Source: a virus
Lineage: Duplodnaviria; Heunggongvirae; Uroviricota; Caudoviricetes
Reading direction: 5' to 3' (one strand)
Virus record (IMG/VR): IMGVR_UViG_3300031417_000379
Length of the DNA stretch: 64,000 nucleotides
Both the position numbers and the translations under genes were made by a program. The notes beneath the pieces were generated by a model. That model saw only the letters and a list, made by a program, of their open reading frames with translations, was not told the origin of the DNA and made no database searches. Positions 353 through 63,378 of the stretch are shown piece after piece. How positions within the stretch are numbered: the stretch's first letter is position 1; the number at the start of each line of letters is the position of its first letter.

Positions 353-1111
353 TTAGTTCGTTAAGAAATCTCGCACGATGTCACGCGATACGCGATCCAA
401 AATAGCTTTTTCAAGATCTCCGAGTTCAGCGTAGAAATCACCTTCGGGCCCTTTGATCTTTCGAGCGTAGGCTTCAGTATCGTCAAAGTCTTCAACGCCA
501 AACGGCTTACTGCCGTTCCCGTACTCTCTACGAATAGAAGCCAGATTGGTTACACCGGTGACATCGAGATACTCGTCTTCGCCAAGCTTGATAGCCACGT
601 GGCCTTGCCAGTATTTTGAGCTTGTATCGTGCGTAAACATCGTTACTGGGAGTCCAGTCTTTTCACGAAGAGCGTAGGCTAGATAGCCGCAAGCGCCGTG
701 CGTAAAGACGTTCATTGTCTCAGGCGAGTTGTAGTCGAAAGTGGCGTCCATGTTGTGGGTAAAACGAGTGTAGACCGGGGTGCTTGGGCCGATCGGCCCC
801 ATACGTTCGATCTCTTTATTCGTGTAGCCGTTCTTCAGCTGACGTTTGACCATAGCTGTTTCTTTGACAGTTAGAGGATACACGTCGTTCGGGATAGGCG
901 AGTAAACAGCCTGGATATCCTTCGGCATCTTCTTCGGCTTAGACATAACGGTCGGCACAACTTCAGCCGCCATTGCTGTTTCGTAAAGCTGCCGAGCTTC
1001 TTCCTTCGTGGCACCGTGCGGCGCTGTCTCGCCGTAGCGACAGTTTCCAGGCTGGGCTGTACATTTGTTGACACGGCCGGTTTCCGGATTGATGTGATAG
1101 CGCTCAGTCAC
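353..1111 (-). CDS. HCCH-module protein (N-terminal YHINPETG..C..GNC..H motif), C-terminal domain of unknown function
   Basis: 252-aa ORF; N-terminus MTERYHINPETGRVNKCTAQPGNCRYGETAPHG matches the H-C-C-H module shared with 5 other ORFs in this window. Confidence 0.8.
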   Translation of the reverse strand: MTERYHINPETGRVNKCTAQPGNCRYGETAPHGATKEEARQLYETAMAAEVVPTVMSKPKKMPKDIQAVYSPIPNDVYPLTVKETAMVKRQLKNGYTNKEIERMGPIGPSTPVYTRFTHNMDATFDYNSPETMNVFTHGACGYLAYALREKTGLPVTMFTHDTSSKYWQGHVAIKLGEDEYLDVTGVTNLASIRREYGNGSKPFGVEDFDDTEAYARKIKGPEGDFYAELGDLEKAILDRVSRDIVRDFLTN

Positions 1112-30856: not shown

Positions 30857-30871
30857 GGGTTACTAGCGAAA

Positions 30872-33115: not shown

Positions 33116-33117
33116 GC

Positions 33118-33723
33118 TTAGTTCCTGTTGACGAGAGCGGAGTCGTTAAGGTTAACCTCGGTTGTGGTAGTGACACGCGTGGTCATTACGCCGTCGAGGC
33201 CCCCGCCGGCCTTAACATTAGCGTTACCGGCAGCACGTAGGAGTGTGAGACCGGAGCCAGGAACACCGGCGTACTTCCACTGAACATCACAGAACGCCTG
33301 CTGTCCGATGAAGTTTGACTTGCTCGGGCCACAAGTGACCTTAGTAATAGTCACATTAGTAAGCCCAGCAGAAGTGCTAAGGTTAGCCATAAGCTGGCAC
33401 TCGATGGCGGTGTTCTTCGTCATCGGGTTACCACTAATCTGAACGTTCGGGTTATTCACTAGCCCCGAACATGGATTAACAGCTGAACCGTAAGCCTTCT
33501 CAAGTTTAGTCTCTTGAGTGTTCGTACCGTTACCACCGAAGATAGAAACGGTACGAACAGCATCACGAGTTGAGCTTAAGATTACGTTGCGGTTCATAAA
33601 GAAGATCGAAGTATCGACAATCGTAATGAGAATTGCAACAATGAGCGGGATGACAATGATGGTAGACACCAGGGTAGAGTCACCCCGGTCACGCATTCTG
33701 CGCTTGAGTTTGGAAAACAGCAT
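33118..33723 (-). CDS. TadE-like protein (paralog of the preceding gene)
   Basis: N-terminus MRDRGDSTLVSTIIVIPLIVAILITIV matches the same pattern. Confidence 0.55.
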   Translation of the reverse strand: MLFSKLKRRMRDRGDSTLVSTIIVIPLIVAILITIVDTSIFFMNRNVILSSTRDAVRTVSIFGGNGTNTQETKLEKAYGSAVNPCSGLVNNPNVQISGNPMTKNTAIECQLMANLSTSAGLTNVTITKVTCGPSKSNFIGQQAFCDVQWKYAGVPGSGLTLLRAAGNANVKAGGGLDGVMTTRVTTTTEVNLNDSALVNRN

Positions 33724-33795
33724 CTGCCTACTCCTGATTGGTCATCTAGCTATTGCGAATATCACTTAGGCTACTTTCTGACCTTTCTAAACGAG

Positions 33796-34665: not shown

Positions 34666-34770
34666 CGTTACTCCATACCCTCTAATTAGCTGTAGCTGAC
34701 AGCTTGAGCGATTTGTTTGCTGTTGTGCAGTGGTTGTATGTGGTGCAGGACTAAGCTCTTAGAATTGCTT

Positions 34771-35598: not shown

Positions 35599-35601
35599 GG
35601 A

Positions 35602-37005: not shown

Positions 37006-37059
37006 AGCAACCGTCCGTTCTGAGTTGGTGTGTCACGTTCTATATCGTTTTGGTGCTTA

Positions 37060-37105
37060 AACTTCTAGCCACTGACAAGTGTTAACTCGTCAGTGGCTAG
37101 AAGTT
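37060..37105. terminator. 17-bp perfect-stem hairpin (aacttctagccactgac/gtcagtggctagaagtt)
   Basis: Between the 37117 stop and the 37005 start on the minus strand. Confidence 0.5.
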
Positions 37106-37116
37106 ATGAGCTGATC

Positions 37117-37419
37117 TTAATTGATCTGTTTAGCTGCCTTCTCAGCGGTGCCGGTTAGTGCACCACCATCACCGAACAGTGCCGGACCGGCGAAGATGAG
37201 CACACCGACGATGGCAGCAATACCGATGAAGCCGATGAGCTTTGTCCAGGAGCGGTCTTTAATGAACATGATAGCGAAAATAGCTACAGCCGCAATGAAG
37301 ATTGGAGTAACCCACCCTGAACGGAGAGAGTTCCAAAGCTCATTCAGACCAGCAGCTGGGATTACAGTTGCTAGATAGGTGAATGTGTTTAACATGGTTG
37401 ACCCCAGTTGTGTTTGCAA
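37117..37419 (-). CDS. small hydrophobic protein (VirB2/pilin-like, tentative)
   Basis: 100 aa with 2-3 TM helices, located next to a TraG-like ATPase. Confidence 0.65.
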   Translation of the reverse strand: MQTQLGSTMLNTFTYLATVIPAAGLNELWNSLRSGWVTPIFIAAVAIFAIMFIKDRSWTKLIGFIGIAAIVGVLIFAGPALFGDGGALTGTAEKAAKQIN

Positions 37420-37465
37420 ACATTACCGGTTGGAGGCCGGCGATTCGAATATCGGTATCTCTAAC

Positions 37466-39082
37466 TTATTTCGCCGGCGCGGGTACGTAGTAGTATGGAG
37501 CGAACTTTGTAACCGTATATCCGTTGGAGGCCGGCTCGAGAGTCATAACGTATTGCGACGTATAAATGGTGTTAGAAGTGGCAGTAAACTTGTATTCCCA
37601 GTTAACCTTGATTAGGACTTTGATTTCCTTTGTTGACGTAGAGTAAGCGGTGTAAGTCACAGCGCTGTCAACTCCATCAGCAAAATCGTAGATACCGCCT
37701 AGGCCGTCTGTGAGCTCAGGCCCCGGCTTTGCTGGGAGATACTGGTCAAGGCGGATGTGATCCTCAGGGGTGGATGTGCGGTAGCCCTCCATGAAGCCCT
37801 GAACTACAGCCTTCACATCGTTCTGATCCTCGATCTCCTCGCCTGAACCGAGAGCGTCACCGTCCGGAACCTTAGTCGAAGCCATGTTAGTAGGAGTCGG
37901 GATAAGTGACGGGCTGTCGGGAGTAACTGAATACTGCTGCTTCTTGGCGTCGTAGAAAACGTTGACGCTGAAGAACTGCCACTTCGCCGTGCTCTTGTCA
38001 ATAGGAGCGGTGTTTTCAGTGGTGGAGTCACCATCGGCAGTCTCGGTGTCGCCGGAGTCAGCTTTTCCTCCTGAGGTGTCCTCAGGCTGCACAAGAGCAC
38101 CGACGGTAAAGTTAGCCGACTCATCCGAAAGGTACTGCTTACCGTAGATCGTGGGGCCGTAGAGGATCTTTTGCCCATACCCGTTACCGTTCTGGCGGTT
38201 CGGGTAGTTCTGCTCACCCTCGACCATACGGCCGGAGTAATAGTAGTTTAGAACGCTTTCAGCTGTAGGGTCTGTGCCGAGCGTGAGATAAGCCTGGACG
38301 AAGTCCTTAGCGAAGCCTTCCCCACCGTCGATGGGGAAGTCCGTCATAGCAACTGTCTCTTGTACAGTGTTACGCACATCCGCTGTGGTGAGAGTAGGCT
38401 TTGGGACGATGGCGTTGTAAGCACCGAGGCCGACGATCACAACGAGGAATGCGATCACAACCGCCATGAAGCCCTTAGCTTGAGAGCGTAGGTTCTTGCG
38501 CTTGTCAAGATCCGCAACTTTGAGAGATTTCTTCCCACCGAAGGGGCGAAGCTTCTTCTTACTCTCGCTGATGTGGACGTTCTGCCCCTTCTTATCAACC
38601 TTGCCCGCTTGCGGAGTTAGCTTCTCGGGCTTCGGCTGCTTAGTCTTACGAGCCTTACGAGCTTCTTCTTGAGCTCGCTCGAGCTCGTCATCGTAAGCCT
38701 CTTCGTCTTCTTCAGTAGTACGCTGAGGTTCAGGTGTCGCGATCGGGCGGCGCACTTGCTCTTCATCCTCTTCTACCGCTTCACTCGGCGGAAGAGTGCT
38801 AAAGGGATCGTCTTCCTCGGGTGAGCTGTAGTCACGAGAAAAGTCGGAGTCGACATTTGATGGACGTGAGCCATCGAAGTCGTAGTCTCCAAGCCGGTCG
38901 TTTGTGAGCATATCTGGAAGCGCTGGCGCCTCTGAGCGCGGTGAAGGAGTCGCTCTCGGCGAGAGATCAGGCAGCCCGTTCCCGCTTCCGGTAGCTGCCG
39001 GTCGCTGCGGCAAACCCGGTCGCTGCGGAAGTCCATTTCCCTGTTTAGGGTTGGAAGGTAAGGCCATTTTTTGTCCTCTCAA
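37466..39082 (-). CDS. bitopic membrane protein with Pro-rich N-terminal region and ~300-aa extracytoplasmic domain (VirB8/TcpC-like position)
   Basis: 538 aa; PQRPG repeats, one TM helix (FMAVVIAFLVVIVGLGAYNAIV), then a globular domain. Confidence 0.75.
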   Translation of the reverse strand: MRGQKMALPSNPKQGNGLPQRPGLPQRPAATGSGNGLPDLSPRATPSPRSEAPALPDMLTNDRLGDYDFDGSRPSNVDSDFSRDYSSPEEDDPFSTLPPSEAVEEDEEQVRRPIATPEPQRTTEEDEEAYDDELERAQEEARKARKTKQPKPEKLTPQAGKVDKKGQNVHISESKKKLRPFGGKKSLKVADLDKRKNLRSQAKGFMAVVIAFLVVIVGLGAYNAIVPKPTLTTADVRNTVQETVAMTDFPIDGGEGFAKDFVQAYLTLGTDPTAESVLNYYYSGRMVEGEQNYPNRQNGNGYGQKILYGPTIYGKQYLSDESANFTVGALVQPEDTSGGKADSGDTETADGDSTTENTAPIDKSTAKWQFFSVNVFYDAKKQQYSVTPDSPSLIPTPTNMASTKVPDGDALGSGEEIEDQNDVKAVVQGFMEGYRTSTPEDHIRLDQYLPAKPGPELTDGLGGIYDFADGVDSAVTYTAYSTSTKEIKVLIKVNWEYKFTATSNTIYTSQYVMTLEPASNGYTVTKFAPYYYVPAPAK

Positions 39083-39102
39083 GTACTGATGTAAATATCA
39101 CT

Positions 39103-41679
39103 TCAAAGCTCAGGTAGACTCATGTCTCCAATATTCGGAAGTGATGCATCTGCAGGCTTTTTCTGTTGCGGCGCAGTTGGAATACCCGTAGGGCGAGTGG
39201 GAAGACCGACTCGCTTTGGAGCGCCTGACTGTGAGCTTTGAGCAGGGCTAGGAGGCTGCACCAGCGGCTTAGACGGCGCGGGAGCCGCCGCAGGTGTCGT
39301 CCCAAATAGTGAGTCGAGACCGTCGCTATCTGTCAGCTCTGGCTTTTTCTGCGGGCTCTTTGGACCTACAGGCTTACGAAGCGGAGGAGTCGGCGCCGGT
39401 GCCGCACCGCTAAAGATAGAGCTTAAGGTCTCCGGCTTGTGCTCCTCATCTTCTGACTCGAGTAATTCAGCCGGCGCCTCAGTCATGATCCATTCGTCGT
39501 CTTCCTCGTGATAAGTCGAGAAATCATCCTCTTCGGCGTTACGAGCCGGGAAGTTGAACATCTGGCGCTCTTCTTCGGGATCGAACTCATCAAAGTTCAC
39601 GTCTGCTACTGCCTGCTGACGAGTGTAATCGTGCTCAAGGGCTGTAGACGAATCTTTAGCCTTCTCAACTGCCGGCTTAGGGCGGCGCGCGAGTTCTTTC
39701 TGAGCGCCACTGTAATAGTCAGCGAGCACCGCCACCGGAGGAACCATCCAAACAGAGCGTGCAAGTGCTCCGCCCCCGCGCTTAGAGTACTTCGGATCTG
39801 CCGTTGTCTTCGTAACCCAAACAGCTGATGACTTGAAGCCGTTCACCGGGTCTGGCGAGGAAAGCTTCATGAACTCTGACGGTGGGTAAACCCAACGCTC
39901 TTCCTCACGCGCGGCCACCCGGCTGTCCATGCTTCGTGAACGATTGTAGCTCAGGAATGAGCTGTCGTTCTCATTAGTTCTTGAGTAAACCGTGACAAAG
40001 TGTTTTCCAAGAAGCTTTGAGAGGCGTGTAGCTGAGTCCTCTGTTGAGCCGGCGTGAGCGATGAAGTTACCACAGGTGTCAAGGATAGAGTTAAGGTATG
40101 ACTCCCCAGCTTTCTCAGCTGAGGCTACCACCTGATCGAAAGACTGCTGAGCAATGGTCATGGCCATCTTTGACTCACGTGACTTCTCGAGAAGCGCTGT
40201 AACTGCATCCGGCGGGACCGCCTGGAATTCGTCAACGTAGATGCTTACTTCGTTGTCTGCCTGAGCGTTACGACGAAGAGCTGAGATGTTCGTGAGATCC
40301 GAGAAGATCATTGATCCCACGTACTGAGCGAACTCCGGCTCCGAGTCAGAGTTGAGAGAGAACATAATGACGTTTCCCGGCTGCTTGGTGAGCTCGAAGA
40401 GATCAATCTCTCGATCTCCAGGAGCGTTGCCGGTTCTCATCCAACGGCCGTACTCCGAAGCTGTGATGGTTCGCATCTGGCCTTGGAGCTCAGTGTAGGC
40501 TTGAGTAAGAGCGCCTTTAGACTTAAGCGCCTCACCAATCTCGATAGCGTTCTTTGCGACCGGTGAGTTGACCGGCACTGATTTCCGGACATCGTTGATT
40601 CCACCTTCGCCTACCGGAGTGTAGGTGTACTTGAAAGTTTCGGGGAAGCGCTTGTCATCCGAGTTAGCGTCAACAAGTTCGTTCATGCCGTTGCCGGAAA
40701 CAGCTGAAGCTAACTGAGCTATGCCACCGTGATCCCAGTCGATGCTTCGAGCAATTTCACGGTTTCCGTACTTGAACATGGCAAAAGTTACCTGGAGTAA
40801 CTGCTGCATGGCTGTCTTGTAGACTGCAGCAGCGCTGTCATACTCGCGCATACCGAGAACCATGTCAGCTTTAGACGTAGGAGTACCCGAGCGTAGGGGA
40901 TCGTAGTAGCACTGCCCCTTCGAGCGGGGGATGTCGTAGTCCTCTGGATCGCCGTTGACAAAGTGGTAGAACTCTCTGCCGTTCTCTTCGGCGAACGCAG
41001 CAGCCATAGCTGCGAACTTCGGCGAACGCTTAAAGTCGATGACCACTACGGTCTTGCCCATTTCAATGTCAGAGTGCATGAGACTCTGCATGGTGATACT
41101 CTTACCGGAACCGGTCTGGCCGGTAATGAACGTATGCTTAGCCGCCTCTGTAGAGTAGCGCGAAACCACCTCATCAGTTTTCTCGTCAATTCCCATAGGA
41201 GAGCGCTTCACAGTGGTAAGAAGGCCGTTTTTGAGCTTCTGAATGTTCTTTTTGCGCTCGAGAATCTGTAGAGGCGTACGGCGGTAAGAGAACCTATAGC
41301 GCCATGAGCCTTCTAGCTGAGTTAGGTACGGGTTACGCTTTAGTCGACGAGCTTCTAACCAAACAAAGCCGTACCCGGTCGGTGCACCTAGTACGACACT
41401 AAGTCCAATCCATGCTGGAATTAGCGACGGTAGATACTTGGTGAAGTTTGATAGATCACCGAAGAGCTGTGAAAGTCCGCTTACTCCAATACCAAGAGTT
41501 ATGAGCCCAATAATCCCCACCGCGGCGGCGACCGCGCTGACCACCGTCGGACGATTCCGGTGGTAGCGGAATAGATACCAGAGTGAGTACGCGACGATGG
41601 CACCGGGGAGGAAAACCAGCCCCAGAACGATTAGAATCGGCCACGGAGAACTCTGCTTGGCGTCTTCATCATCGGCCAT
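39103..41679 (-). CDS. FtsK/TraG/VirD4-like coupling-type ATPase with 3 N-terminal TM helices and a Pro-rich C-terminal tail
   Basis: Walker A FITGQTGSGKS (~aa 190) after N-terminal TM helices; Walker B-like IYVDEFQAV; 858 aa. Confidence 0.75.
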   Translation of the reverse strand: MADDEDAKQSSPWPILIVLGLVFLPGAIVAYSLWYLFRYHRNRPTVVSAVAAAVGIIGLITLGIGVSGLSQLFGDLSNFTKYLPSLIPAWIGLSVVLGAPTGYGFVWLEARRLKRNPYLTQLEGSWRYRFSYRRTPLQILERKKNIQKLKNGLLTTVKRSPMGIDEKTDEVVSRYSTEAAKHTFITGQTGSGKSITMQSLMHSDIEMGKTVVVIDFKRSPKFAAMAAAFAEENGREFYHFVNGDPEDYDIPRSKGQCYYDPLRSGTPTSKADMVLGMREYDSAAAVYKTAMQQLLQVTFAMFKYGNREIARSIDWDHGGIAQLASAVSGNGMNELVDANSDDKRFPETFKYTYTPVGEGGINDVRKSVPVNSPVAKNAIEIGEALKSKGALTQAYTELQGQMRTITASEYGRWMRTGNAPGDREIDLFELTKQPGNVIMFSLNSDSEPEFAQYVGSMIFSDLTNISALRRNAQADNEVSIYVDEFQAVPPDAVTALLEKSRESKMAMTIAQQSFDQVVASAEKAGESYLNSILDTCGNFIAHAGSTEDSATRLSKLLGKHFVTVYSRTNENDSSFLSYNRSRSMDSRVAAREEERWVYPPSEFMKLSSPDPVNGFKSSAVWVTKTTADPKYSKRGGGALARSVWMVPPVAVLADYYSGAQKELARRPKPAVEKAKDSSTALEHDYTRQQAVADVNFDEFDPEEERQMFNFPARNAEEDDFSTYHEEDDEWIMTEAPAELLESEDEEHKPETLSSIFSGAAPAPTPPLRKPVGPKSPQKKPELTDSDGLDSLFGTTPAAAPAPSKPLVQPPSPAQSSQSGAPKRVGLPTRPTGIPTAPQQKKPADASLPNIGDMSLPEL

Positions 41680-48437: not shown

Positions 48438-50909
48438 CTACGCCGCTTTGGCGTTTCTCTTCGTCTTGATCTCTTTGGCGAGCCGGCGGAGCGCGGACTT
48501 GGCCATAGATGACTTAGAAAGATCGTAGCTTGCGCTAGTCGTAAGCAGAGTACGCAGGACGCTCCGATCGAAATCCTTGGCATTCTCACGACTGAGCTCG
48601 CGTGTGAGGTGCTCTAGATCCATAAGAGCCTTTAGTGCTCCTTCACCGTAGCGTGCAACAAAGACCGGCCGTGTCTCTTCGGCCGCCGCGCTTGTGTAGG
48701 GCGAGCCATCGTAGGTGATGTAGGCGTCGAAAATCGTGAGTAGATCACTGTCGTCCTGATCGAGATATGGCTTTACCTCGGCTAGTACGGTCTTGTTCAC
48801 GCCACGATAGCTGAAGGCAAGCTGGCTTCTAATCAGCTGCTCAAGCGTGAGGCTTTCGAGAGTTGTCTTAAGAGCAGAAGCGCTGTAACAGCGATCCTTG
48901 GCCAACTCCTTGAGCGAAGTAGCAGTAAGCGGGTAGCTCGTGTTGAAGTAGAACCGCTCACGATACTCAAGAAGCTGACTAGCCTCTGCACCGGTGAGCT
49001 TGTACTTATAGATTACAACGCTACGACCCGAAACGTCCACACCGGCGTTCTTCATACCGTAGTAAGTATTCTTCCAACCGTCACCCACAAGGATAATAGC
49101 ATCAGTGTCCAGCACGTCCTGGAAGCACATAAGCTCGGACGACCTATTCATTTCATGGCTGCCGAGTTCTTCGATCTTGTTTGGGTCCGCCAGCTTTTCA
49201 GTCTTTAGAGTCCAGAACTCACGACGCCCGGTGAGAATCTCCTGGTCACGGTGCTTGCGCTGAGTCGAGCGCTTCGCCTTCTCGAGATCGATGTCAGGCT
49301 TCACAAGCTCGAAAAGTTCCTTAGCTGTGTAGTGAAGGATACTTTCCTCGCCGAGGAAGATGTTTGCATACCGCAGATCTTCCTGGTTGACACGGTTCTT
49401 TGCTTGCTTAGTGAAGGTGAAGATCCAGGAGGAACGCGCGCCGGCGAAGATAGCGTCGCGCTGTCGAAGAACCTTCCTCATGTCAGCGTCCGAGCAAGAA
49501 TAGACCATCACGACGGTCTTGTCCTTACCCATAAGCTCTTTACCCAGGTGGCCGACCGAGAGGTCCGGAGCGTCCTCATCATAACGCTTGCTAATCACAC
49601 TCATAGTAGAGGTGACGCTGATGTCTAGATCACCCTTGCGGTAGCTTTCGTGCCAGTAAGCAAAGCCGCCTCGAGTGTAGTGATCCTGATTCTTACTAAG
49701 AGCAAGACGAACACTCTTTAAGCTTTCGAAGTCCTTTACGGCGCTTACGACGAGCGGATTAAACCCGAACTTTGAGTCGAGGAGCGAAATGGGATACTCG
49801 TGATTTGCAAAGAGCACCTTATCGCCGGCCACTACGTCGAAGACACGATCAGCCTTGGCCATAAGCTCGCTGAGCTGCTGCCGACTAAAGTTTCGTACCT
49901 GTGCAAACGTCGCCTTAGCGATCTCAGGCTGAGCGAGAGCTGTCACAACTCGTGAAGTAAGCATGTGATGCTTCTGATCATGGGTGATGGAGTCCCGCGA
50001 TGAGTCAAAGTTAACGAGTGCCGGAACAATCTCCACCACGACGTTAGGAGCTAAGTCGATGGCGGTGCTTCCATCACCACGATAAAGCCAACCGGAAAGC
50101 GAGAAGCTCAGGTCACCGTCACCAACAGAGCTGGAGTAGTACCGATCCTTGCCGACACGGCTAAAGTATGAGCTAACCCAGGACTTACGGATGAACACTC
50201 GCCCGGTGATCTCTCCATCCTCGTCAGCGTAGATCACCGCATCGCCAGCAAAGTAATAGTCCAAGTTCGTGCCAGAGATCTCGCCGTCCACCATCACCGG
50301 AAGGAGTCGACTGTGAAGCTGATAGACGCTCACCGCCTCCTTGAAGCGGTAGATGTCCTGAGCCTGAACCGGGATACGAACTGTGGTGCCTGCTTCAGCG
50401 CCGGTGCGCCCAGACGAACGAATCGTGGTGCGAGTTTCACCTCCGGATCGAGCCATTACGAACTCCGTGGTGACGCCGGCGTGCGTGGTAGTGACCTCGA
50501 AAGAATCAGTGTAGGCTAGCGGCGACTTACCTCCGAGACCGTATGAGCCGATGGCCTTCAAGTCGTTGGTCTTCGTCGTCGCACCGTAGTCAGCAAAGAC
50601 ACTCCGTACGGTCTGAAGACTCATGCCGATGCCGTAGTCCTTCACCGTGAAGTACGCCTCAAGCTCAGTCGGAAGAGTGAGCTCAACCGGCTTCCTCTGA
50701 TCCTCAGGAAGAGCGACGGTAGCATCCGTAGCATTGCTGACGGTTTCTCGAACTGTGGCCTTCACGGGGTCAACATAAAGCTTTGTAAGACGATCGATCA
50801 CGTGAGACATGTTCGCCTTGTTGATGCTCGCCTTGATCTCTTCAGATCCCACCGCAGGAAGCAGAGTGGTTACGCTGGGGGCAGTGGTGTCAGTCTTCGT
50901 CAACGCCAT
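48438..50909 (-). CDS. HSP90-like GHKL-ATPase domain protein (823 aa)
   Basis: ETVSNATDA (cf. HSP90 ELISNASDA) and YGIGMS..GATTKT (cf. DTGIGMT..GTIAKSGT) ATP-lid motifs near the N-terminus. Confidence 0.5.
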   Translation of the reverse strand: MALTKTDTTAPSVTTLLPAVGSEEIKASINKANMSHVIDRLTKLYVDPVKATVRETVSNATDATVALPEDQRKPVELTLPTELEAYFTVKDYGIGMSLQTVRSVFADYGATTKTNDLKAIGSYGLGGKSPLAYTDSFEVTTTHAGVTTEFVMARSGGETRTTIRSSGRTGAEAGTTVRIPVQAQDIYRFKEAVSVYQLHSRLLPVMVDGEISGTNLDYYFAGDAVIYADEDGEITGRVFIRKSWVSSYFSRVGKDRYYSSSVGDGDLSFSLSGWLYRGDGSTAIDLAPNVVVEIVPALVNFDSSRDSITHDQKHHMLTSRVVTALAQPEIAKATFAQVRNFSRQQLSELMAKADRVFDVVAGDKVLFANHEYPISLLDSKFGFNPLVVSAVKDFESLKSVRLALSKNQDHYTRGGFAYWHESYRKGDLDISVTSTMSVISKRYDEDAPDLSVGHLGKELMGKDKTVVMVYSCSDADMRKVLRQRDAIFAGARSSWIFTFTKQAKNRVNQEDLRYANIFLGEESILHYTAKELFELVKPDIDLEKAKRSTQRKHRDQEILTGRREFWTLKTEKLADPNKIEELGSHEMNRSSELMCFQDVLDTDAIILVGDGWKNTYYGMKNAGVDVSGRSVVIYKYKLTGAEASQLLEYRERFYFNTSYPLTATSLKELAKDRCYSASALKTTLESLTLEQLIRSQLAFSYRGVNKTVLAEVKPYLDQDDSDLLTIFDAYITYDGSPYTSAAAEETRPVFVARYGEGALKALMDLEHLTRELSRENAKDFDRSVLRTLLTTSASYDLSKSSMAKSALRRLAKEIKTKRNAKAA

Positions 50910-50947
50910 GGGCTAGTCCTTTCGACTCTCCCAAACTACCAGGCTTT

Positions 50948-52597
50948 CTAGGCTACGTCAACCGCTTCGAACTGCTTGTGCAGATAGCGACGAACGAAAA
51001 TCTCAAGCTCTTGAGCAGGCGGAGTGGCGAGCTCTTTGTGCTTAGGAAGCTCCATTTCAGAATCAGGAGTGTAGACCTCGCCGGTGTGAAGATTCGAGAT
51101 AAGCTTTGTAAAGCGATCGTAGACAAGTACAGTGCTCTTACCAGTTTCAGCTTTGTTGAGATTCCACTGATGCTTAAGAGCCCCAGTGAGTGGGCGGTGA
51201 ATATAGCCAGAGGTTACCGTGTACGTCGGCGCCATACCGGTGCGCTGGCGGTCAACGAGCGAGATAATACGCTTCTCTCGGAGAAGTCGAGTGGCGGCTG
51301 AAACGCGGCTTGGCGTAAGTTCGAGAGCTTCAGCCACCGGTTTAATAGCCAACACGACTCGAGAAGCACCAACGTTAAGAAGCGGCTGGAAAACAGCATC
51401 CAGAATGAGAACAGCATCGCGCATAACCTGAGGGATCTTCTTACGCTTGTGTGCGTCAAGACGAAGAAGAACACGCTCAATATGTACTACTCGAGGATCG
51501 CGGCGATGCCAGCTCATAGCGAGAGTACGCTCACGGATCTTGCGGCGATTCTCCTCAATCACAGATTCGAGTGATCGTGGTGACTGTTCAGCCACCTCAC
51601 GACGACCTACTGGACAGTAAACAGTGTGCTCCGTGTTCGGATGATTCTCTCGGAAACGACGTACGTCCTCGATGATCTGCCAAAGTGAGATTCTCTTGCT
51701 CGTGTAGGAGTCTCGATCGATCTCAAGCTCAAGACACGCTATAGCAATGGTGTAATCACTGTAACAGCACTGAAGAGCGGCCGTTACGAAAGCTCGACGA
51801 CGGTAGTACTCGATGTCAGGGCTACGCTTTAGCTTCTTTCGCAGTCCGGCTCGGAGCAAGATCACTACGCCGGCATCCGGCTTCGTCTCCACAAGGTGGA
51901 CCGGTATCTGTTTAGGAGCTTTCGGTTCACGTGAAAGCTTTCGCTCTTTTTGAGAAACTCTTAGCTCACCTAAGATACGTGCAGCGTTTGGCGAGATCTC
52001 TTCAAGCTGACTAAAGTCCCCAGAACGCAAGATTTCACGCGAGCGCCCTTGAAGGATGTAGGAACCAGGAGTCGGATAGGCGGCACCGTCCTTCATCTGT
52101 GAGACGTAAGAACCTGGCCCGACTACGTATCCTGCAGCGTCCGAGGAGCGAATGTCAGCGTCGATCAGCGGGGCTACCTCGTCACCGATGAGTTCTGCAA
52201 GCTTTTTAGCGTAAGGGCGTAATGATCCGTTAAAGATGGTGCCTCCGCCGGGAATACGGAGATAGTAGTGACGCCCACCAGAAGGCGACTTCACTGAAAG
52301 TGTCTCTGACAGAGTGACACCGAGGAAGCGCTCAAAGAACTCTTCCGAAGCTTTTAACGGTGCTTTGTGGATGTCAATGTCAAGTACGAAGAAGTCTGAG
52401 CTTGGAATGACGCCGTAGTTACCTGACTTCGGGACTTCGGTTACTCGAGCTCTAGCCTTACGGCCCTCTTTGAGCCGGTAAGTGCCGGTTGGCTCTTTGG
52501 TCCCTTCCTTAAGCGTGACGTAGTTTGCACGCTCGCCGAGAATCCGAGTCAGTTGTTCTCGTGTTGCTGCGGAAAGATCCGGTGTAGCCAAAAGCAC
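50948..52597 (-). CDS. Prim-Pol-like replication protein with C-terminal HTH
   Basis: NYGVIPSSDFFVLDIDIHK resembles the bifunctional primase-polymerase (RepB'-like) catalytic motif; C-terminal wHTH-like segment. Confidence 0.55.
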   Translation of the reverse strand: MLLATPDLSAATREQLTRILGERANYVTLKEGTKEPTGTYRLKEGRKARARVTEVPKSGNYGVIPSSDFFVLDIDIHKAPLKASEEFFERFLGVTLSETLSVKSPSGGRHYYLRIPGGGTIFNGSLRPYAKKLAELIGDEVAPLIDADIRSSDAAGYVVGPGSYVSQMKDGAAYPTPGSYILQGRSREILRSGDFSQLEEISPNAARILGELRVSQKERKLSREPKAPKQIPVHLVETKPDAGVVILLRAGLRKKLKRSPDIEYYRRRAFVTAALQCCYSDYTIAIACLELEIDRDSYTSKRISLWQIIEDVRRFRENHPNTEHTVYCPVGRREVAEQSPRSLESVIEENRRKIRERTLAMSWHRRDPRVVHIERVLLRLDAHKRKKIPQVMRDAVLILDAVFQPLLNVGASRVVLAIKPVAEALELTPSRVSAATRLLREKRIISLVDRQRTGMAPTYTVTSGYIHRPLTGALKHQWNLNKAETGKSTVLVYDRFTKLISNLHTGEVYTPDSEMELPKHKELATPPAQELEIFVRRYLHKQFEAVDVA

Positions 52598-53594: not shown

Positions 53595-53918
53595 CTATCG
53601 CTCTATCGGGAGCCAGGTAAGCACCTCGATACGCTCGTCGAGATCTCCGAACGGAAGCTCCTCCACCGCTAATTTGAAGACCGGAGCGTGCTTCTTCCAA
53701 ATCTCGTGCCAGGTGACGTAGTACTCTACCGGCTCCCATTCCCCACTCTCTTTTAACTGGCGGTGGAACCAAACGCCATCACGCTCTTGCAGGAGAATCG
53801 TGTGTGGTGTCCTGTAGCGCTGTACAGACATGAGAAGCTCTCCCCCGATGGGAGCTTCGGACGGACCGATCTCCTCAGAGTTTTCAAGCATGAGCTTTTC
53901 GATAACAGCGCTATCCAT
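53595..53918 (-). CDS. hypothetical protein
   Basis: 107-aa ORF; its start codon at 53918 overlaps the stop of the upstream nucleotidyltransferase gene by 1 nt. Confidence 0.6.
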   Translation of the reverse strand: MDSAVIEKLMLENSEEIGPSEAPIGGELLMSVQRYRTPHTILLQERDGVWFHRQLKESGEWEPVEYYVTWHEIWKKHAPVFKLAVEELPFGDLDERIEVLTWLPIER

Positions 53919-54733
53919 CAGTCAACCTCTTTAGCAAGCTCCGTCACAAAGTCGTAGACGTTGTTGACATCCTTATAGCGCCGGTTAAGCACCGGCAGTT
54001 GACGGTAGAAAGCTTCACGCTCCTCATCAGTAAACTCAGGTCGAACACGCTCTTCACGCTGGAAACGATTAGCCAGGATCTCATTACGCAGCGCAGTCTT
54101 CAAGAACTTCATAGCCCGAGGTGAATCATCGCCTCGCTTTTCTGCGCCGTCAGCGAACTTTGAGCTAAGAGAGTGGAGTCTAGTGAGATACTCATACTCG
54201 TTGAAACGAAGATCCGCTAGATACGGCGCCCATTCCTCTTCGTCGCCGGAGAGGTTAAATCCTCGAGAATGATAGGTGTCCACGTTGAAGTGGATTCCTT
54301 TCATGTACTCCTCAGCAAAGACGTAGACTGAAGAGACCCGAACATCTCTGACCTCACCGACCTGAGCAAAGTCCTTGCTAGCCTTACGATCAGTGATGAG
54401 AAAGAGATCGTTGTCACTATCTGGATGATCCAGATTGTAGCTTACGGAGCCGAACTGTGCATGACCAACAAGCTCGCCCTTCAGGATACGCTTGTGAGGA
54501 TTCTCAGTTCGAAGATTCGAGAGAACCTCTAGCACTTCATCGGTAGTAGCAGGGACAATACCAGACTTAGCCGGAGCGAACGAACGCTTAAGAGCTTTCT
54601 GTTCAAAACGTTCAGCATAGGCAGCCTCTGCTTCGCCGAGCGTCTTGTGGTGTTCACCAGCTGCATAAGGGCAGTTACGGATTGACGCTGTACAAGGCTT
54701 TGGACCGTCGTCTGTAAGATGGTACATCAGCAA
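53918..54733 (-). CDS. HCCH module fused to Pol-beta-superfamily nucleotidyltransferase domain
   Basis: N-terminal YHLTDDGPKPCTASIRNCPYAAGEHH module; NTase signature GSVSYNLDHPDSDNDLFLI (GS-x9-D-x-D). Confidence 0.7.
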   Translation of the reverse strand: MLMYHLTDDGPKPCTASIRNCPYAAGEHHKTLGEAEAAYAERFEQKALKRSFAPAKSGIVPATTDEVLEVLSNLRTENPHKRILKGELVGHAQFGSVSYNLDHPDSDNDLFLITDRKASKDFAQVGEVRDVRVSSVYVFAEEYMKGIHFNVDTYHSRGFNLSGDEEEWAPYLADLRFNEYEYLTRLHSLSSKFADGAEKRGDDSPRAMKFLKTALRNEILANRFQREERVRPEFTDEEREAFYRQLPVLNRRYKDVNNVYDFVTELAKEVD

Positions 54734-54736: not shown

Positions 54737-55681
54737 TTAATGCGAAGCTTTAGTCTTCTTCTCGAAGAGACCGATGAGCGGGTGGATGCTGTAGAAGAGA
54801 ACCACACCGAGAACAGCGCCGAAGAGTGTCGATGCAGCGGTGTCACCAAGCCAGCCCAGTACAGGGTGAAAGTGGTGGAAGAACTCTTCGACATGATGAA
54901 GACTATCGGAGAAGATGCCTACTCCGATGTCACCAAGCGACTTCCAAACCAGGTGACCGCCGACCCAGAGCATAGCGAGAGTACCGACCACGGTGAGGAA
55001 AGTGAATACACCGGGCATGGTCTTTACGATGCTGAGACCGAAGAGGCGAAGGCTTCGACGCTCTGTACCACGAACAAGAGCGAGGCCGATGTCATCGAGC
55101 TTCACGAGAAGGGCGACAGCGCCGTAGACTGCGATGGTCATCACGAAACCGATGAGTAGGAGCATGAGAAGCTTCTTGATCCAGTTGTCCTCATCCACCG
55201 ATGAGAGCGCAATGAGCATGATCTCGGTGGAGAGAATTAGGTCTGTACGCACAGCCGAAGAGATCATGCTCTTTTCAAGATTCGTCCCTGCAGTAAGGTG
55301 ACCATCCTCGACGTGTTCCTTCACCAGCTTCAGCCACTCGAGAACCTTCTCAGCGCCTTCGAAGACCAGGTAAGAGCCACCGACCACGAGCAAGAATGGA
55401 AGTACCTGCGGCGCGAGCCAGGAGAGAATCATGGCGAGCGGGATGATGAAGAGGAACTTGTTACGAAAGCTTCCGAGAGCGATCTTGATGACCACGGTGA
55501 GCTCGCGCTTTGGGGAGATGCCCTGGACATATTGAGGAGCCACGGCGGTGTCGTCTACTATGACCCCTACGGTCTTTACGGAAGCCTTGCCGGCACCGAG
55601 AGCCACGTCATCGATACCGACAGCGGCTGACTTGGCGAGCAAGGCGATGTCGCGGAGGAGCAATGAGAAGCCAGAGGCCAT
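54737..55681 (-). CDS. DUF808/YedI-family inner-membrane protein
   Basis: N-terminus MASGFSLLLRDIALLAKSAAVGIDDV..KASVKTVGVIVDD and central FEGAEKVLEWL closely match the E. coli YedI pattern. Confidence 0.8.
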   Translation of the reverse strand: MASGFSLLLRDIALLAKSAAVGIDDVALGAGKASVKTVGVIVDDTAVAPQYVQGISPKRELTVVIKIALGSFRNKFLFIIPLAMILSWLAPQVLPFLLVVGGSYLVFEGAEKVLEWLKLVKEHVEDGHLTAGTNLEKSMISSAVRTDLILSTEIMLIALSSVDEDNWIKKLLMLLLIGFVMTIAVYGAVALLVKLDDIGLALVRGTERRSLRLFGLSIVKTMPGVFTFLTVVGTLAMLWVGGHLVWKSLGDIGVGIFSDSLHHVEEFFHHFHPVLGWLGDTAASTLFGAVLGVVLFYSIHPLIGLFEKKTKASH

Positions 55682-55785: not shown

Positions 55786-56748
55786 TCACTTAAAGGTGTA
55801 GATTGGCATACTGCGATCCGGAATCTCACCGAACGCCTCGCCGTCCACCTCGGTCTTAAGGCCGCCGACCATAGTCCAGCTGGAGCCTAATCTCGTTAGT
55901 GACTGGTCGTGCTGGAAAGCTGTAGTGGAGCCGATTGTATGCACATCGTCACCGCCGGTAGCCACAAGCTTGTATGCGTCGCGTCCAGTGTCAGTCTTAC
56001 CTTTCCAGACTTCTAAAGTAGCGACGTGTTCGTTGCCCTGGCGATCTTTGTAGTTCCACATTGTAAGGCCGTTAGACGAGTTCGCCATGTCCTTATGCGG
56101 GTTACCTCGTTTAGCGATCGGCAGGATCGAGTACGGACTATAGTAGTCAAAGGAAGTGGTGTGCGTCTGAGAAAGCTGACCGGTCTTTGAAGCATCAAGC
56201 TGACTGTTCGCGGGGAAGCCGGCTTTGCGGTTAGCAGCTTCTCGAACAGCCTTAGTGTCAACAGCTGGAGCAGCGGCAACCGGCGCAGCTACGATGTTCT
56301 CTGGGTTGTTGTAAGCCGTGTTGTAGTCCTCCACACTCATAAGCTCTTCACCAGAGTCTTTTACACGCTTCCAGGCGCCGCGGCCGTTGCGGAGGTCTGA
56401 TGGAGTGCCGCTTGTTTTAGCAGCCTTCCCGTTCTTAAAGACCTCCATTCCGCGAAGATCGTGGATGATAGCGATCTTGCCCTGCGTGTGAACGAAGACC
56501 TCATCATACTTCTCGATGCGACTACGGTAAAGCTCGATGTCAGGCCATGCGCCGCGAGCAGCTCGACCGTCCCCCTTTTGCTTTGAAACAGGAGCGTGAG
56601 CCTTAGTCGCCATGCTGTTTTCGTAGCTACTACGAGCAGCCTCGGCTGAAGTGAAGTGGTCGTCAGTGGAGCCGAACGGGCACTTACCTTTCTGGGCGCT
56701 ACAAGCCCCAGCTTCACCGGTGGCCGGGTTAACGTGGAACAAAGCCAT
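55786..56748 (-). CDS. HCCH-module protein (N-terminal), C-terminal domain unknown
   Basis: MALFHVNPATGEAGACSAQKGKCPFGSTDDHFTSAEAARSSYE module. Confidence 0.8.
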   Translation of the reverse strand: MALFHVNPATGEAGACSAQKGKCPFGSTDDHFTSAEAARSSYENSMATKAHAPVSKQKGDGRAARGAWPDIELYRSRIEKYDEVFVHTQGKIAIIHDLRGMEVFKNGKAAKTSGTPSDLRNGRGAWKRVKDSGEELMSVEDYNTAYNNPENIVAAPVAAAPAVDTKAVREAANRKAGFPANSQLDASKTGQLSQTHTTSFDYYSPYSILPIAKRGNPHKDMANSSNGLTMWNYKDRQGNEHVATLEVWKGKTDTGRDAYKLVATGGDDVHTIGSTTAFQHDQSLTRLGSSWTMVGGLKTEVDGEAFGEIPDRSMPIYTFK

Positions 56749-56785: not shown

Positions 56786-57997
56786 TTAGTCACTCGAATC
56801 TGTCTGACCTGTAAGCTCGCCGGTGACCGGGTTGAACGATGCACCTGCGTTGTACTGATTAGCTTTGCCGAGGAAGAAGATGTCGTCGTTCGTTAGTCCA
56901 TACTTGCGAACACGCTCCATGTCGAAAACCTGCGTTCTCTCACTGTATGCTCTTCCAAGCTGAGCAGATTTACCGGCCTTTACGATCTCGCCGAACTCAG
57001 ACGGACCAAGCTTCTCCTTTAGCTTTGCCATACGGATGGCCGGTGACTTCGGTAGCTTATCCTCGATACGTTTACGAAGGATGCTAGAGGAGCTGGGATT
57101 CGCGTAAACGCGCTCAAGCTGTAGATCTTGATCAACGAGAGCAGTGAGTGTCGCCTCTCGAGTGCGAGTATCACTAGCGATCCAGTACTGGAGACGCTCG
57201 TGGTTACGCTTGAGAGCAACGATTCCGAGTTTTGTAATGTCGCCGCTGGTGAGCCTGTGCGGAAGTCCGGTGGTGGCGAAGTAGCTGAGGTACTTCTCCG
57301 GAGCGTTCGCGAGCATGGCTTCAGTAAGCTTCCCACTCGTAAGCGCTGTCTCAGGCTTGAGAGGATGAGTAGCCCAGTTGTTATCCTCGAGCCAGGTCTG
57401 TAAACGCTGCGAGGTGATGTGGTTGTCTTGGCTTAAGACACGAGCGAAATCACTCTTTGCATAACGATCAAGTCGTTTACTGCTGTTGACTTGATCAAAG
57501 TGAGCGTCGGTTAGATGCGGGCTGTTGACCACGCGCCCTATCGGAGTGCTTGAGTCTTTAAGCTTTGACCAGCTTAGGAAGTTATTCGGTACCGAAAGAA
57601 GAACCTCTTCAAGATCCTCAGGAGTCATCGATTGATTAGGTTCGCCGCCGGCGACGAGAATAGCGGCTCGCACCTTCGGCGATGTGGCCCGTGCTAACGC
57701 CTTAGCTGCCTGAGCAGGAGTCAGATTCGGGTTCTTAGCCACGTTCCCGAGAGTTCTTTCTGACCCCTGTTCGATGGCAGCGTTGATGATCCCTGGATCA
57801 TCGGTAGTCTTGGACTGAGCGTTGAGCTCTTTGAGAGGGAGCTTCGCGAAGACCTGTGAGCCCTGCTTTTCCTCAAAAGCCGCACGAGCAGCTTCCGACG
57901 AAGTGTAGTGTTCGTTCTCACCACCGAACGGGCAGTTGCCCTTGGTAGCTGAACACTTGCCGGCGTCACCGGTCTCAGGATTAACGTGATAGCGCAT
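56786..57997 (-). CDS. HCCH-module protein (N-terminal), C-terminal domain unknown
   Basis: MRYHVNPETGDAGKCSATKGNCPFGGENEHYTSSEAARAAFE module. Confidence 0.8.
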   Translation of the reverse strand: MRYHVNPETGDAGKCSATKGNCPFGGENEHYTSSEAARAAFEEKQGSQVFAKLPLKELNAQSKTTDDPGIINAAIEQGSERTLGNVAKNPNLTPAQAAKALARATSPKVRAAILVAGGEPNQSMTPEDLEEVLLSVPNNFLSWSKLKDSSTPIGRVVNSPHLTDAHFDQVNSSKRLDRYAKSDFARVLSQDNHITSQRLQTWLEDNNWATHPLKPETALTSGKLTEAMLANAPEKYLSYFATTGLPHRLTSGDITKLGIVALKRNHERLQYWIASDTRTREATLTALVDQDLQLERVYANPSSSSILRKRIEDKLPKSPAIRMAKLKEKLGPSEFGEIVKAGKSAQLGRAYSERTQVFDMERVRKYGLTNDDIFFLGKANQYNAGASFNPVTGELTGQTDSSD

Positions 57998-61060: not shown

Positions 61061-61795
61061 TTACGCAGTCTTACGAGCATCCAGTCGTCGCTCAAGCTCC
61101 GCCATAAAAGTGTGATAGCGATCTGCGTTCTCGAGCTTCTCTCGGATGTATTCTAGCCGACGCCCTACGCTAGAAGCGATGGTCTCTAGCATCTCATCGA
61201 TCGACGTAATCTCTCCGATGTTAGCCTGGTCGTACCTCGAAAGTGTCTGATCATTCTCATAATAGCTCTTTGGGAACACTTCGAAGCGTTGAAGCGTCTC
61301 AAGCTGCGCTTCAGCATCCTCCGGGGTAAAAGCTTGCTGTACGAAATTCGGAAGCTCGTCATACTTTGCGTTGTATTCGTTCACCTGATCGATCCTGTCA
61401 AGCATGGCTCGATAGGCCTTAAGGGCGTCCACCACATCCTTGACAATGAGCCCGCGATTGGACTTGGAAAGCCGTTCATCGTGCTCGAAGACAGCCTTAG
61501 CCACCAGACGAAGCTCAGACGGCGTCCAGCTTCTAGGCTCCTTAGTGAGCACCGGAAGAAGTTCCTCAGCTGATTCAGCCTCATCCTGAAGCTCAAGCTC
61601 TTTAGCAAAATCGATGTTGTAGAACCCGTGCATCGGTCCGGCTTCGAACATCTCATCGATAAACACGTCTACATCGTCACGCGGTGCCCGAGGAACACCG
61701 AAGCGCTCAAGCTTTCGAGCAAGGCTATCGTAAGCACTTCGGGCGTAAACAGCCTCTTCAGTAGCCTCGTAGCGCTTCGAGTAAAGCTCGTTCAT
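61061..61795 (-). CDS. hypothetical protein
   Basis: 244-aa ORF. Confidence 0.7.
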   Translation of the reverse strand: MNELYSKRYEATEEAVYARSAYDSLARKLERFGVPRAPRDDVDVFIDEMFEAGPMHGFYNIDFAKELELQDEAESAEELLPVLTKEPRSWTPSELRLVAKAVFEHDERLSKSNRGLIVKDVVDALKAYRAMLDRIDQVNEYNAKYDELPNFVQQAFTPEDAEAQLETLQRFEVFPKSYYENDQTLSRYDQANIGEITSIDEMLETIASSVGRRLEYIREKLENADRYHTFMAELERRLDARKTA

Positions 61796-62121
61796 AAAGC
61801 TGTTGATGTACTCGAGCGACTTCTGCTTCTCCAGCCCGGTATAGCTTCGGTACTCAAGACTCCGTACGAAGAAAGCGATCTGCTGCTCAAGCGCTTCGTT
61901 CTTCGAGATGTAGCTGAAACCGTACGAGCCGAAATCAAGCTTCTTCGCCAGGTTCTTCGTGAGGGTAAACCCCGGAGCGCCATACTTATCGAAGAACGAA
62001 CTTCGCGCCGTCTCGAGTGATTCATAGTGTATTCGCTATCTCCAAAGAGACAGCTGTCCGGCACTTCGCAAGAGTCGATTTTGCCGGTGAGACTGTTGAC
62101 ATGAAAACTAGCCATGTACAC
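61792..62121 (-). CDS. short HCCH-module protein (degenerate module)
   Basis: SFHVNSLTGKIDSCEVPDSCLFGDSEY...H keeps the H-C-C spacing; 109 aa. Confidence 0.55.
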   Translation of the reverse strand: MYMASFHVNSLTGKIDSCEVPDSCLFGDSEYTMNHSRRREVRSSISMALRGLPSRRTWRRSLISARTVSATSRRTKRLSSRSLSSYGVLSTEAIPGWRSRSRSSTSTAL

Positions 62122-62151: not shown

Positions 62152-62877
62152 TCAGCTGTTAAGCGAAGCCTGCGCCGCTTCCTTCGAGGTGAAGTGCGCA
62201 TCCTCGTGAGCTACCTTGCAGCTATCAGCACCGTTAGCACAGCGTCTAACAGCGTTAGCATCCGTAGTCACGTGGTACTGACCGGTACGCTTAAGCTGCT
62301 GTCTACGGGCTCTACGTGCTGCTACCGCCTCCTGGTACTTCACGAACGAGGCGTCAGCCTGCTCTTCGACTTTGCGAGCATCATCAACCTGAGCACGAGC
62401 TGCCTCAACAGCCTTCTCTGCGGCTTTGACTGCATCCTGCTTTACACGAAGCTCCTGAACGCTAGCCTGAAGCTCCTTATTGCGAACTTCAAGCTGGCCC
62501 TTCTTCTTTGCCATCTTGTGCTTCGCTACCTCGTGACGGATAAGCTTCGCGAAGTCTCGATCGGAGAAAGAGAGGATACGTCGATCAAGTGTGAAGTTAG
62601 AGAACTGGATACTGTTCTCACCGAGCTTCTCCACCTTCGGCGACCAGGACTGGAGGAACTTACCGAGATCGCCGAGGAACTCGTAGTGCTCAGCACGGAG
62701 GTAGTGAGTACCGAACTTCTTCTTAAGGACACTGTTGCCGACGTAGTTCAGGTGCTGAAGCCGGCGCGTGATGATGCGATCGGTAGCCTCATTCAGCTTC
62801 TCCTGCTCAAGCTTCATGCGTGCCTCAAACTCCTCACGAGCAGCGGCCAGGTTGTTGTAGTTAAGCTTTGCGTTCAT
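62152..62877 (-). CDS. coiled-coil protein with C-terminal HCCH module
   Basis: C-terminus YHVTTDANAVRRCANGADSCKVAHEDAHFTSKEAAQASL carries the same module found at N-termini elsewhere. Confidence 0.75.
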   Translation of the reverse strand: MNAKLNYNNLAAAREEFEARMKLEQEKLNEATDRIITRRLQHLNYVGNSVLKKKFGTHYLRAEHYEFLGDLGKFLQSWSPKVEKLGENSIQFSNFTLDRRILSFSDRDFAKLIRHEVAKHKMAKKKGQLEVRNKELQASVQELRVKQDAVKAAEKAVEAARAQVDDARKVEEQADASFVKYQEAVAARRARRQQLKRTGQYHVTTDANAVRRCANGADSCKVAHEDAHFTSKEAAQASLNS

Positions 62878-63305: not shown

Positions 63306-63378
63306 GGTGCCCCCAGTCAGGATCGAACTGACTCAGTTGGGTTTAGAATCCACCGCTCTACCATTGAGCTATAGGGGC
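63306..63378 (-). tRNA. tRNA gene; anticodon CUA (amber-reading) if the canonical 7-nt loop is used; anticodon stem has two mismatches
   Basis: Reverse complement folds with a perfect 7-bp acceptor stem (one G-U), 4-bp D stem with GG loop, 5-bp T stem with TTCGATC loop, U33 and A37; anticodon stem only 3 WC pairs flanked by G-A and A-C; 3' CC encoded. Confidence 0.55.

Follow-up and report, generated by a model that had tools for sequence, protein, structure and literature searches.

A divergent RlaP-related nucleotidyltransferase with a predicted zinc-binding front end on a metagenomic mobile element

RlaP enzymes, of which T4 NrdC.11 and the Pseudomonas proteins PfRlaP and PaRlaP are named examples, add one or two NMPs to the 3'-OH of RNA and prefer damaged tRNA mimics; they combine a nucleotidyltransferase (NTase) domain with a helical domain, and a basic cleft lies between the two (PMC12776372). 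Members of the Pol-beta superfamily in general are recognized by an hG[GS] motif that is followed by [DE]h[DE]h and by a third carboxylate on a later strand. MNT-HEPN pairs are recognized by a minimal NTase of about 100-150 aa together with an adjacent HEPN partner carrying Rx4-6H. The hallmark of Hailong is the tyrosine-primed synthesis of oligo-dA by HalB. Hailong is made up of two genes, which encode a TM protein and an NTase (PMC13434031).

The enzyme described here is encoded within a 64-kb stretch of DNA (the window). Its most fitting description is that of a two-domain Pol-beta NTase, divergent and related to RlaP, with a new front end, a small putative zinc module (HCCH) that apparently has not been described before.

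The element and the coding sequence

All genes of the window lie on the minus strand. Pfam analysis identified a VirD4/TrwB-type coupling protein (39103-41679), a TrbL/VirB6 domain (within 26435-30670), a transglycosylase (25055-26428) and a NikA-like relaxosome protein (33796-34665), together with a sigma-70 factor, ThyX and SPFH; genes for PrimPol, a HATPase protein and DnaG adjoin the NTase locus. The T4SS coupling, TrbL/VirB6 and NikA-like genes constitute the signature of a conjugative element and not that of a phage. A phage identity was therefore rejected on the basis of these T4SS and relaxosome genes, the PHROG matches being generic, and the element looks like an actinobacterial, conjugative-plasmid-like one.

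A sequence-only reading of this DNA had proposed a 271-aa protein in which an HCCH module is fused to a minimal Pol-beta-type NTase. The corresponding minus-strand open reading frame (53918-54733) is present, and its length is 271 aa when counted from the first possible start, TTG 54733. An AAGGA sequence is situated 6 nt 5' of a second candidate start, ATG 54727 (minus-strand letters ...CAT TAA GGATTGCTG ATG TAC CAT...), where this ribosome-binding site overlaps the stop codon of the DUF808 gene, and the close homologues all start with MYHL, as does the product of ATG 54727. Because of these two features, the true start is probably ATG 54727, which would give a coding sequence of 53918..54727 and a product of 269 aa; the proposed frame holds and the proposed length probably does not. 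Residue numbering throughout follows the 271-aa frame (TTG 54733 start). At the 3' end of the NTase gene, the stop codon is shared in part (TGATG) with the ATG that begins a 107-aa open reading frame (53595..53918, minus strand), which is conserved in the clade of the window.

Domains, catalytic residues and family relationships

The protein is divided into four segments. The HCCH module occupies residues 3-47 (54593..54727, minus strand) and is followed by a linker or N-terminal extension of residues 48-85 (54479..54592, minus strand), which contains a helix at 64-77 and a conserved [FY]-A-P-x-K motif with an invariant P54. The Pol-beta NTase core comprises residues 86-160 (54254..54478, minus strand); its G95-S96 and S106-D107-x-D109 motifs are encoded at 54407-54451, the location of the motif quoted in the sequence-only reading (GSVSYNLDHPDSDND), while the third carboxylate, D130, has its codon at 54344-54346 and D152 falls in a VDxxHS motif. 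The remaining residues, 161-271 (53921..54253, minus strand), form a C-terminal helical domain of about 110 aa with a conserved basic patch (R176, K209, K212, R216, R223, R231 and R239). An alignment of 80 NTases, both fused to HCCH and standalone, shows no variation at G95, S96, S106, D107, D109 or D130, and the same six residues plus D152 are invariant in 11 homologues of 37-92% identity. Y99 and Y182 are conserved among the HCCH-NTase fusion proteins.

An AF2 model based on the 80-sequence alignment reached a pLDDT of 94.7 and a pTM of 0.83. The model consists of an HCCH hairpin-loop-helix, a linker helix, an alpha/beta NTase domain with strands at 88-94, 109-114, 122-124 and 131-135, and a helical domain of four helices (179-270). 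The predicted fold is that of an alpha/beta NTase, and the superfamily signature (G95-S96, D107-x-D109 and D130) is found on model strands placed as expected for Pol-beta enzymes. It is highly probable, from these features, that the protein is an active Pol-beta NTase. The proposed fusion of HCCH to a Pol-beta-type NTase was borne out by the invariant catalytic Asp residues, by a fold that matches NTases and by relatives that pass Pfam thresholds; absence of the catalytic Asp residues, which the same reading had named as evidence against its proposal, does not apply to D107, D109 and D130. The description of the NTase as minimal has to be dropped in view of the additional helical domain.

Profile searching of 1.84 billion representatives returned 353 hits at E <= 1e-3, which fall into three classes, namely complete proteins that join HCCH to the NTase, NTases of about 200 aa that stand alone, and HCCH modules on other domains. 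A search with the 80-sequence profile yielded no further named relatives. The target had no nucleotide or protein match among PLSDB plasmids and GenBank phages, the standalone relative P0061 had no match among phages, and scanning IMG/VR and GTDB genomes for patterns taken from the family alignment produced zero relatives. The family was found only on metagenomic giant elements, with contigs ranging from 89 kb to about 700 kb. In Pfam, the target falls below every threshold, scoring 16.4 bits against a cut-off of 21 for NTP_transf_2 (E 0.012) and more weakly for Polbeta and MTPAP-like; across 12 members, these three families were the only ones at E <= 1. The relatives P0017 and P0058 pass the NTP_transf_2 threshold. 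The target also matched phrog_388, a 'nucleotidyltransferase', at E 3.5e-4, and the best matches of a BFVD fold search were phage and giant-virus 'nucleotidyltransferases' (E 3e-8 to 1e-6). A strong hit to a housekeeping NTase family, the other finding that the sequence-only reading had listed as contrary to its proposal, was absent from the Pfam and NCBIfam searches.

An RlaP (PF10127) alignment was built from T4 NrdC.11 and five phage homologues. Comparison of the target family profile with this alignment by hhalign gave a probability of 97.5% and an E of 8.5e-12 over 101 columns (query residues 80-183), and by this measure RlaP is the closest sequence family, for the core only, as the C-terminal helical domains of the two families are left unaligned. 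D107, D109 and D130 coincide with the invariant Asp residues of RlaP, which in T4 NrdC.11 are D22, D24 and D62, and the two families share a GS...Y-G/N-L...SDxD signature, the third Asp and a subsequent helix with a VDxxH motif. The predicted architecture of the target, an NTase domain followed by a C-terminal helical domain with a cleft, is also that of RlaP, and both are carried on mobile elements, where both may be associated with genes of RNA-repair type. Homology to the RlaP core is, on this comparison, very likely. The target itself gives no PF10127 hit in Pfam, where it does not reach the gathering threshold; P0052, a distant relative, is alone in scoring above the RlaP gathering cut-off (25.8 versus 23 bits), and it does so over profile positions 7-62 only. 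Unlike RlaP, the target carries the N-terminal HCCH module and the [FY]APxK linker, and no RNA ligase was found beside it; RNA ligase, PNK and 2H genes were all absent from the approximately 38 window ORFs scanned with Pfam. Outside the window, Thg1 is encoded two genes upstream of a homologue (locus L005), and fusions of HCCH to an RNA ligase and to a CCA enzyme are present.

Foldseek comparison of the model with the PDB placed HalB first (E 1.5e-5, target-normalised TM-score 0.50-0.53). The PDB set searched contains no RlaP structure, so the choice of best solved match is biased towards HalB and says nothing against RlaP. The HalB structures (9dbh, 9dbi and 9dbj) are 12-16% identical to the target, their sequence similarity is marginal (E 0.087) next to that of RlaP, and HalB lacks a zinc module.

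The matches after HalB were KNTase/ANT(4'), AAD(9) and LinB (E 4e-5 to 5e-3), all of which are two-domain Pol-beta NTases like the target. This common architecture would be expected if the gene encoded an antibiotic NTase of the ANT/KNTase/Lnu type and conferred resistance, an explanation that we regard as extremely improbable. The TM-scores are only 0.25-0.4, family-level sequence hits are lacking (11.9 bits against a cut-off of 340 for ANT(9) in NCBIfam, below the aminoglycoside/lincosamide family level), and context and partners are different. Moreover, the family is known only from metagenomic giant elements, and a zinc module common to an RNA ligase, a PARP and a helicase is hard to square with drug binding.

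The weak MNT-type matches of a PDB profile search (E 0.02-0.14), the overlap of the stop codon with the ATG of the conserved 107-aa ORF that follows and the location of the gene on a mobile element are all consistent with a toxin or abortive-infection NTase of the AbiEii or MNT type, which would nucleotidylate tRNA or a partner protein and arrest growth, with the 107-aa ORF as partner or antitoxin. Several results make this explanation very doubtful. AbiEii, other toxin families and CD-NTase were absent from Pfam at E <= 1 over the 12 members, and PADLOC returned nothing significant for the target (best match PDC-M05A, E 0.013). At 269 aa and with its helical domain, the protein is far larger than MNT. 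The 107-aa ORF had no family hit in Pfam, NCBIfam or PHROG and is missing from the divergent fusion loci. The orthologue of locus L012 does not preserve the R-x4-H string of this ORF; assignment of the ORF as HEPN was rejected for this reason, and the pair does not correspond to MNT-HEPN. Membership of the AbiEii, CD-NTase, ANT/Lnu and MNT families, which the sequence-only reading had raised, thus finds no support in Pfam, PADLOC or NCBIfam.

The HCCH module and its fusion partners

The HCCH module of the NTase fusion (module HMM E 2.6e-19) is modelled as a beta-hairpin, a loop and a helix at a pLDDT of 86-94. Its candidate zinc ligands H5, C14, C21 and H28 are invariant in the 12 closest homologues and in the 11 homologues of 37-92% identity, and together with G10 they are invariant across 57 HCCH modules. 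It is likely that the module binds zinc. The module had zero matches to Pfam, NCBIfam or PHROG models in the HCCH proteins of the window, its consensus had no match among phages, and a literature search found nothing on such a module in mobile elements. A word-indexed search with the HCCH profile recovered only 14 short, unnamed proteins.

Five copies were detected in the 64-kb window with the module HMM, four at E 1.6e-15 to 2.6e-19 and one at E 3.1e-5. In addition to the NTase fusion, these are a 320-aa paralogue (55786..56748, minus strand; E 1.6e-15) and a 403-aa paralogue (56786..57997, minus strand; E 4.2e-17), a 252-aa paralogue (353..1111, minus strand; E 4.3e-16), and a 241-aa protein (62152..62877, minus strand; E 3.1e-5) in which an HCCH-like module is C-terminal (residues about 200-240).

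One and the same module is found on many different enzymes. The Pfam domains located downstream of it in 54 HCCH proteins were PARP with WGR and PARP_reg, 2H-SAK, PolyA_pol, Zeta_toxin, AAA_33, RNA_lig_T4_1, YqaJ, ResIII/Helicase_C, Fic and ArdA. Examples are P0142 (HCCH-WGR-PARP_reg-PARP), P0148 (HCCH-RNA ligase, RNA_lig_T4_1), P0128 (HCCH-CCA/poly(A) polymerase), P0150 (HCCH-YqaJ) and P0147 (HCCH-ResIII-helicase). Since most of the partners that could be identified work at the ends or breaks of nucleic acids, with ArdA and Fic among the exceptions, we infer that the module may recognize such ends or breaks. These partners also fit the suggestion of the sequence-only reading that a shared module targets the paralogues to a common substrate.

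PARP1 has DNA-break-sensing zinc fingers ahead of its WGR-HD-ART domains. P0142 resembles it in carrying a small HCCH module N-terminal to WGR-PARP_reg-PARP, and the HCCH module, too, sits on enzymes that work at nucleic-acid ends. The two differ in that the HCCH ligands are arranged as H-C-C-H over 24 residues; the module has no sequence match to Pfam zinc fingers, and its nucleic-acid binding is only putative.

The module could instead be a protein-docking or delivery tag, for T4SS co-transfer or for a common hub, that does not bind nucleic acid. Its shortness and N-terminal location, its occurrence on very different effectors (ArdA, Fic and Zeta-type kinases included), the five copies within one window and the T4SS coupling, TrbL/VirB6 and NikA-like proteins encoded there would all suit a tag of this kind. 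Such a role is nevertheless rather unlikely, given that most identifiable partners act on nucleic-acid ends, that the module of P0142 takes the place of the PARP1 break-sensing fingers before WGR-HD-ART, and that one copy in the window is C-terminal. A docking tag concerns the HCCH module alone and is compatible with any NTase chemistry.

Membrane-protein neighbours and proposed function

The gene directly upstream of the NTase encodes a DUF808/YedI membrane protein (54737..55681, minus strand), as the sequence-only reading had stated; it matches PF05661 at 330 bits (E 1.5e-98) and is separated from the NTase by a 3 nt gap. The DUF808 protein of the element is 44-55% identical to chromosomal DUF808 proteins. 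The best 80 of these loci all belong to Actinomycetota, which makes an actinobacterial host probable. No NTase and no HCCH module is encoded within 4 kb at any of these 80 chromosomal loci.

In the clade of the window, the gene order is 403 aa (HCCH), 320 aa (HCCH), DUF808, NTase, 107 aa, about 270 aa, PrimPol and HATPase, and it is kept in loci L001 (92% identity, 149-kb contig ERZ27247428 k141_339670), L002 (58%), L012 and L013. The divergent fusions (32-38% identity, GC 31-66%, including the Ga0308157 contigs of 681 and 697 kb) lack DUF808. In five of these loci (L003, L004, L005, L008 and L016) the NTase is directly followed by a homologous 140-180-aa 4-TM protein (at 6976-7515 in L004), a homologue of which was not found within the window, and in L006/L007 it is directly followed by two 2-TM proteins. 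Conservation of the gene pair, proposed as a check in the sequence-only reading, is consequently seen in the clade of the window and fails in divergent homologues; these and the 80 chromosomal loci led us to reject DUF808 plus NTase as a general conserved pair. A membrane-protein gene is directly adjacent in every fusion locus examined, whereas standalone NTases of the family have no consistent TM neighbour. With about 17% of the genes in the examined loci encoding proteins with at least 2 TM segments, the chance of a membrane neighbour in three lineages is roughly 0.03 if the lineages are independent, which they may not be. Adjacency beyond chance is thus suggestive only. The RlaP-like reading leaves the always-adjacent membrane-protein gene unexplained.

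This adjacency, together with the tight coupling of the DUF808 and NTase genes, is what would be expected of a Hailong-like pair, in which the NTase, possibly by protein priming as in HalB, would synthesize a nucleotide polymer or signal that gates or restrains the adjacent membrane protein, and the pair would serve the element in exclusion, abortive-type defence or addiction. We consider this explanation quite unlikely. Beyond the marginal HalB similarity and the biased PDB set, the DUF808 and 4-TM partners differ from those of Hailong in matching no PDB chain at E <= 10; no HalA-type TM effector was found beside the NTase in this sequence-level PDB comparison, which assumes that HalA is among the chains searched. 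The ordinary chromosomal relatives of DUF808 occur without an NTase, the adjacency exceeds chance weakly, the standalone NTases lack the neighbour, and there was no PADLOC hit. A fuller version, in which HCCH-NTase and its membrane neighbour form a Hailong-like module of giant mobile elements and HCCH senses broken or incoming DNA or RNA, is improbable.

We favour instead an RlaP-like enzyme that would extend nucleic-acid 3' ends and be delivered to them by the zinc module, a reading that, taken as a whole, stands about evenly between right and wrong. The protein would comprise three parts: a zinc-binding HCCH module of about 45 aa, a conserved linker, and a two-domain Pol-beta NTase with an RlaP-homologous core. 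D107, D109 and D130, with two Mg2+, would catalyse template-free nucleotide addition to a nucleic-acid 3' end, and the substrate would be held in a basic cleft that the NTase domain and the helical domain enclose. That the enzyme acts on a nucleic-acid 3' end at all is plausible, with the case equally balanced, and assignment of RNA specifically as the substrate is tentative; broken RNA or tRNA would be the most probable acceptor. HCCH would serve as a shared recognition or delivery module, present also on other nucleic-acid-end enzymes of the element and its relatives, and the protein would be one tool in the repair or anti-defence kit of the element.

These results settle no long-standing question, and the chemistry of the NTase is one that we infer. 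The consistent membrane-protein neighbour is a lead towards a Hailong-like mechanism; a module of that kind, if real, would add plasmids to the carriers of DNA- or oligonucleotide-gated membrane effectors and would give DUF808/YedI a function. If the RlaP-like reading is correct, the RlaP-type enzymes that extend RNA ends would include a strongly diverged branch, one seen exclusively on giant mobile elements that are uncultivated. The HCCH module in HCCH-WGR-PARP proteins could then be a bacterial counterpart to the zinc fingers with which PARP1 senses breaks. One small zinc module would be the common front end for an RNA ligase, a CCA-adding enzyme, a PARP, an exonuclease, a helicase, kinases and an NTase, and it would provide a handle by which mobile elements could be searched for whole groups of enzymes that repair nucleic-acid ends or serve in anti-defence.

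Genes flanking the HCCH-NTase

Directly upstream of the HCCH-NTase gene, the window DUF808 gene (54737-55681, minus strand) shares 44-55% identity with its chromosomal relatives. All of the best 80 DUF808 loci belong to Actinomycetota, with Actinomyces/Schaalia, Microbacterium, Rhodococcus, Rothia and Corynebacterium among the genera represented. The GC content of the window (approximately 53%) is far below the median of these 80 chromosomal loci (68%). On the other side of the nucleotidyltransferase, an 823-aa protein with an HATPase_c_3 domain of the HSP90/MORC/TopoVI-B type adjoins a 549-aa PrimPol-domain protein (48438-52597, minus strand), and this pair is retained 3' of the NTase in four other loci (L001, L002, L012 and L014).

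Divergent HCCH-NTase loci

Divergent HCCH-NTase genes were located on two contigs of approximately 690 kb with a GC content of 36-37%, namely Ga0308157_10000026 (681,631 bp; loci L004/L015) and Ga0308157_10000025 (697,643 bp; locus L016). These contigs may represent megaplasmids, huge phages or small genomes. A single metagenome is the source of both contigs and of the window-like element L012. The surroundings of the HCCH-NTase on these contigs encode, among others, PnuC-like and NadR-like proteins, YqaJ-RNase_T and GSP_synth. At five loci the gene directly 3' of the divergent HCCH-NTase always encodes a member of a small 4-TM family with a common LLPxTxLR motif (L003, 6819-7304; L004, 6976-7515; L005, 5185-5604; L008, 2932-3357; L016, 7073-7546), and these loci span a GC range of 31-66%. 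For this family a PDB sequence match was not found, and no homologue was detected within the window.

Additional HCCH proteins

The 351-aa HCCH protein of the 92%-identical relative L001 (2611-3666) corresponds to two window ORFs within 61061-62121 on the minus strand, encoding 109 aa (61792-62121) and 244 aa (61061-61795). The final HCCH histidine is displaced in the window version, and the split may stem from a frameshift or a sequencing error, or may mark a pseudogene. The neighboring 241-aa protein (62152-62877, minus strand) carries its HCCH-like module at the C-terminus (QYHVTTDANAVRRCANGADSCKVAHEDAHFTSKEAAQASL*) rather than the N-terminus, a placement kept in L001 (1849-2574). A profile search also recovered P0142, a 531-aa protein with the order HCCH, WGR, PARP_reg and PARP catalytic domain. 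PARP1 has break-sensing zinc fingers ahead of its WGR-HD-ART part; the C-terminal arrangement of P0142 is PARP1-like, and its HCCH module occupies the position of those fingers.

Nature of the element

Twelve tightly packed consecutive ORFs of approximately 190-236 aa each lie on the minus strand at 5018-12572. The three array ORFs scanned against Pfam gave no match, and iterated HMM searches detected mutual relatedness only among 10507-11103, 11268-11915 and 11916-12572. ARAGORN called a tRNA with a CTA anticodon, labelled tRNA-Pyl, at 63306-63378 (minus strand). This tRNA is of the amber-suppressor type, which is unusual on a plasmid-like element; despite its presence, the window ORFs read normally in genetic code 11. 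A conjugation-type gene set was also observed on the minus strand (25055-41679). Its products are a transglycosylase (25055-26428), a TrbL/VirB6-domain protein of 1411 aa (26435-30670), a NikA-like relaxosome protein (33796-34665), a GmrSD_C/HNH-type nuclease (34771-35598) and a VirD4/TrwB-like coupling protein (39103-41679). In its gene content the window resembles a conjugative element, not a phage.
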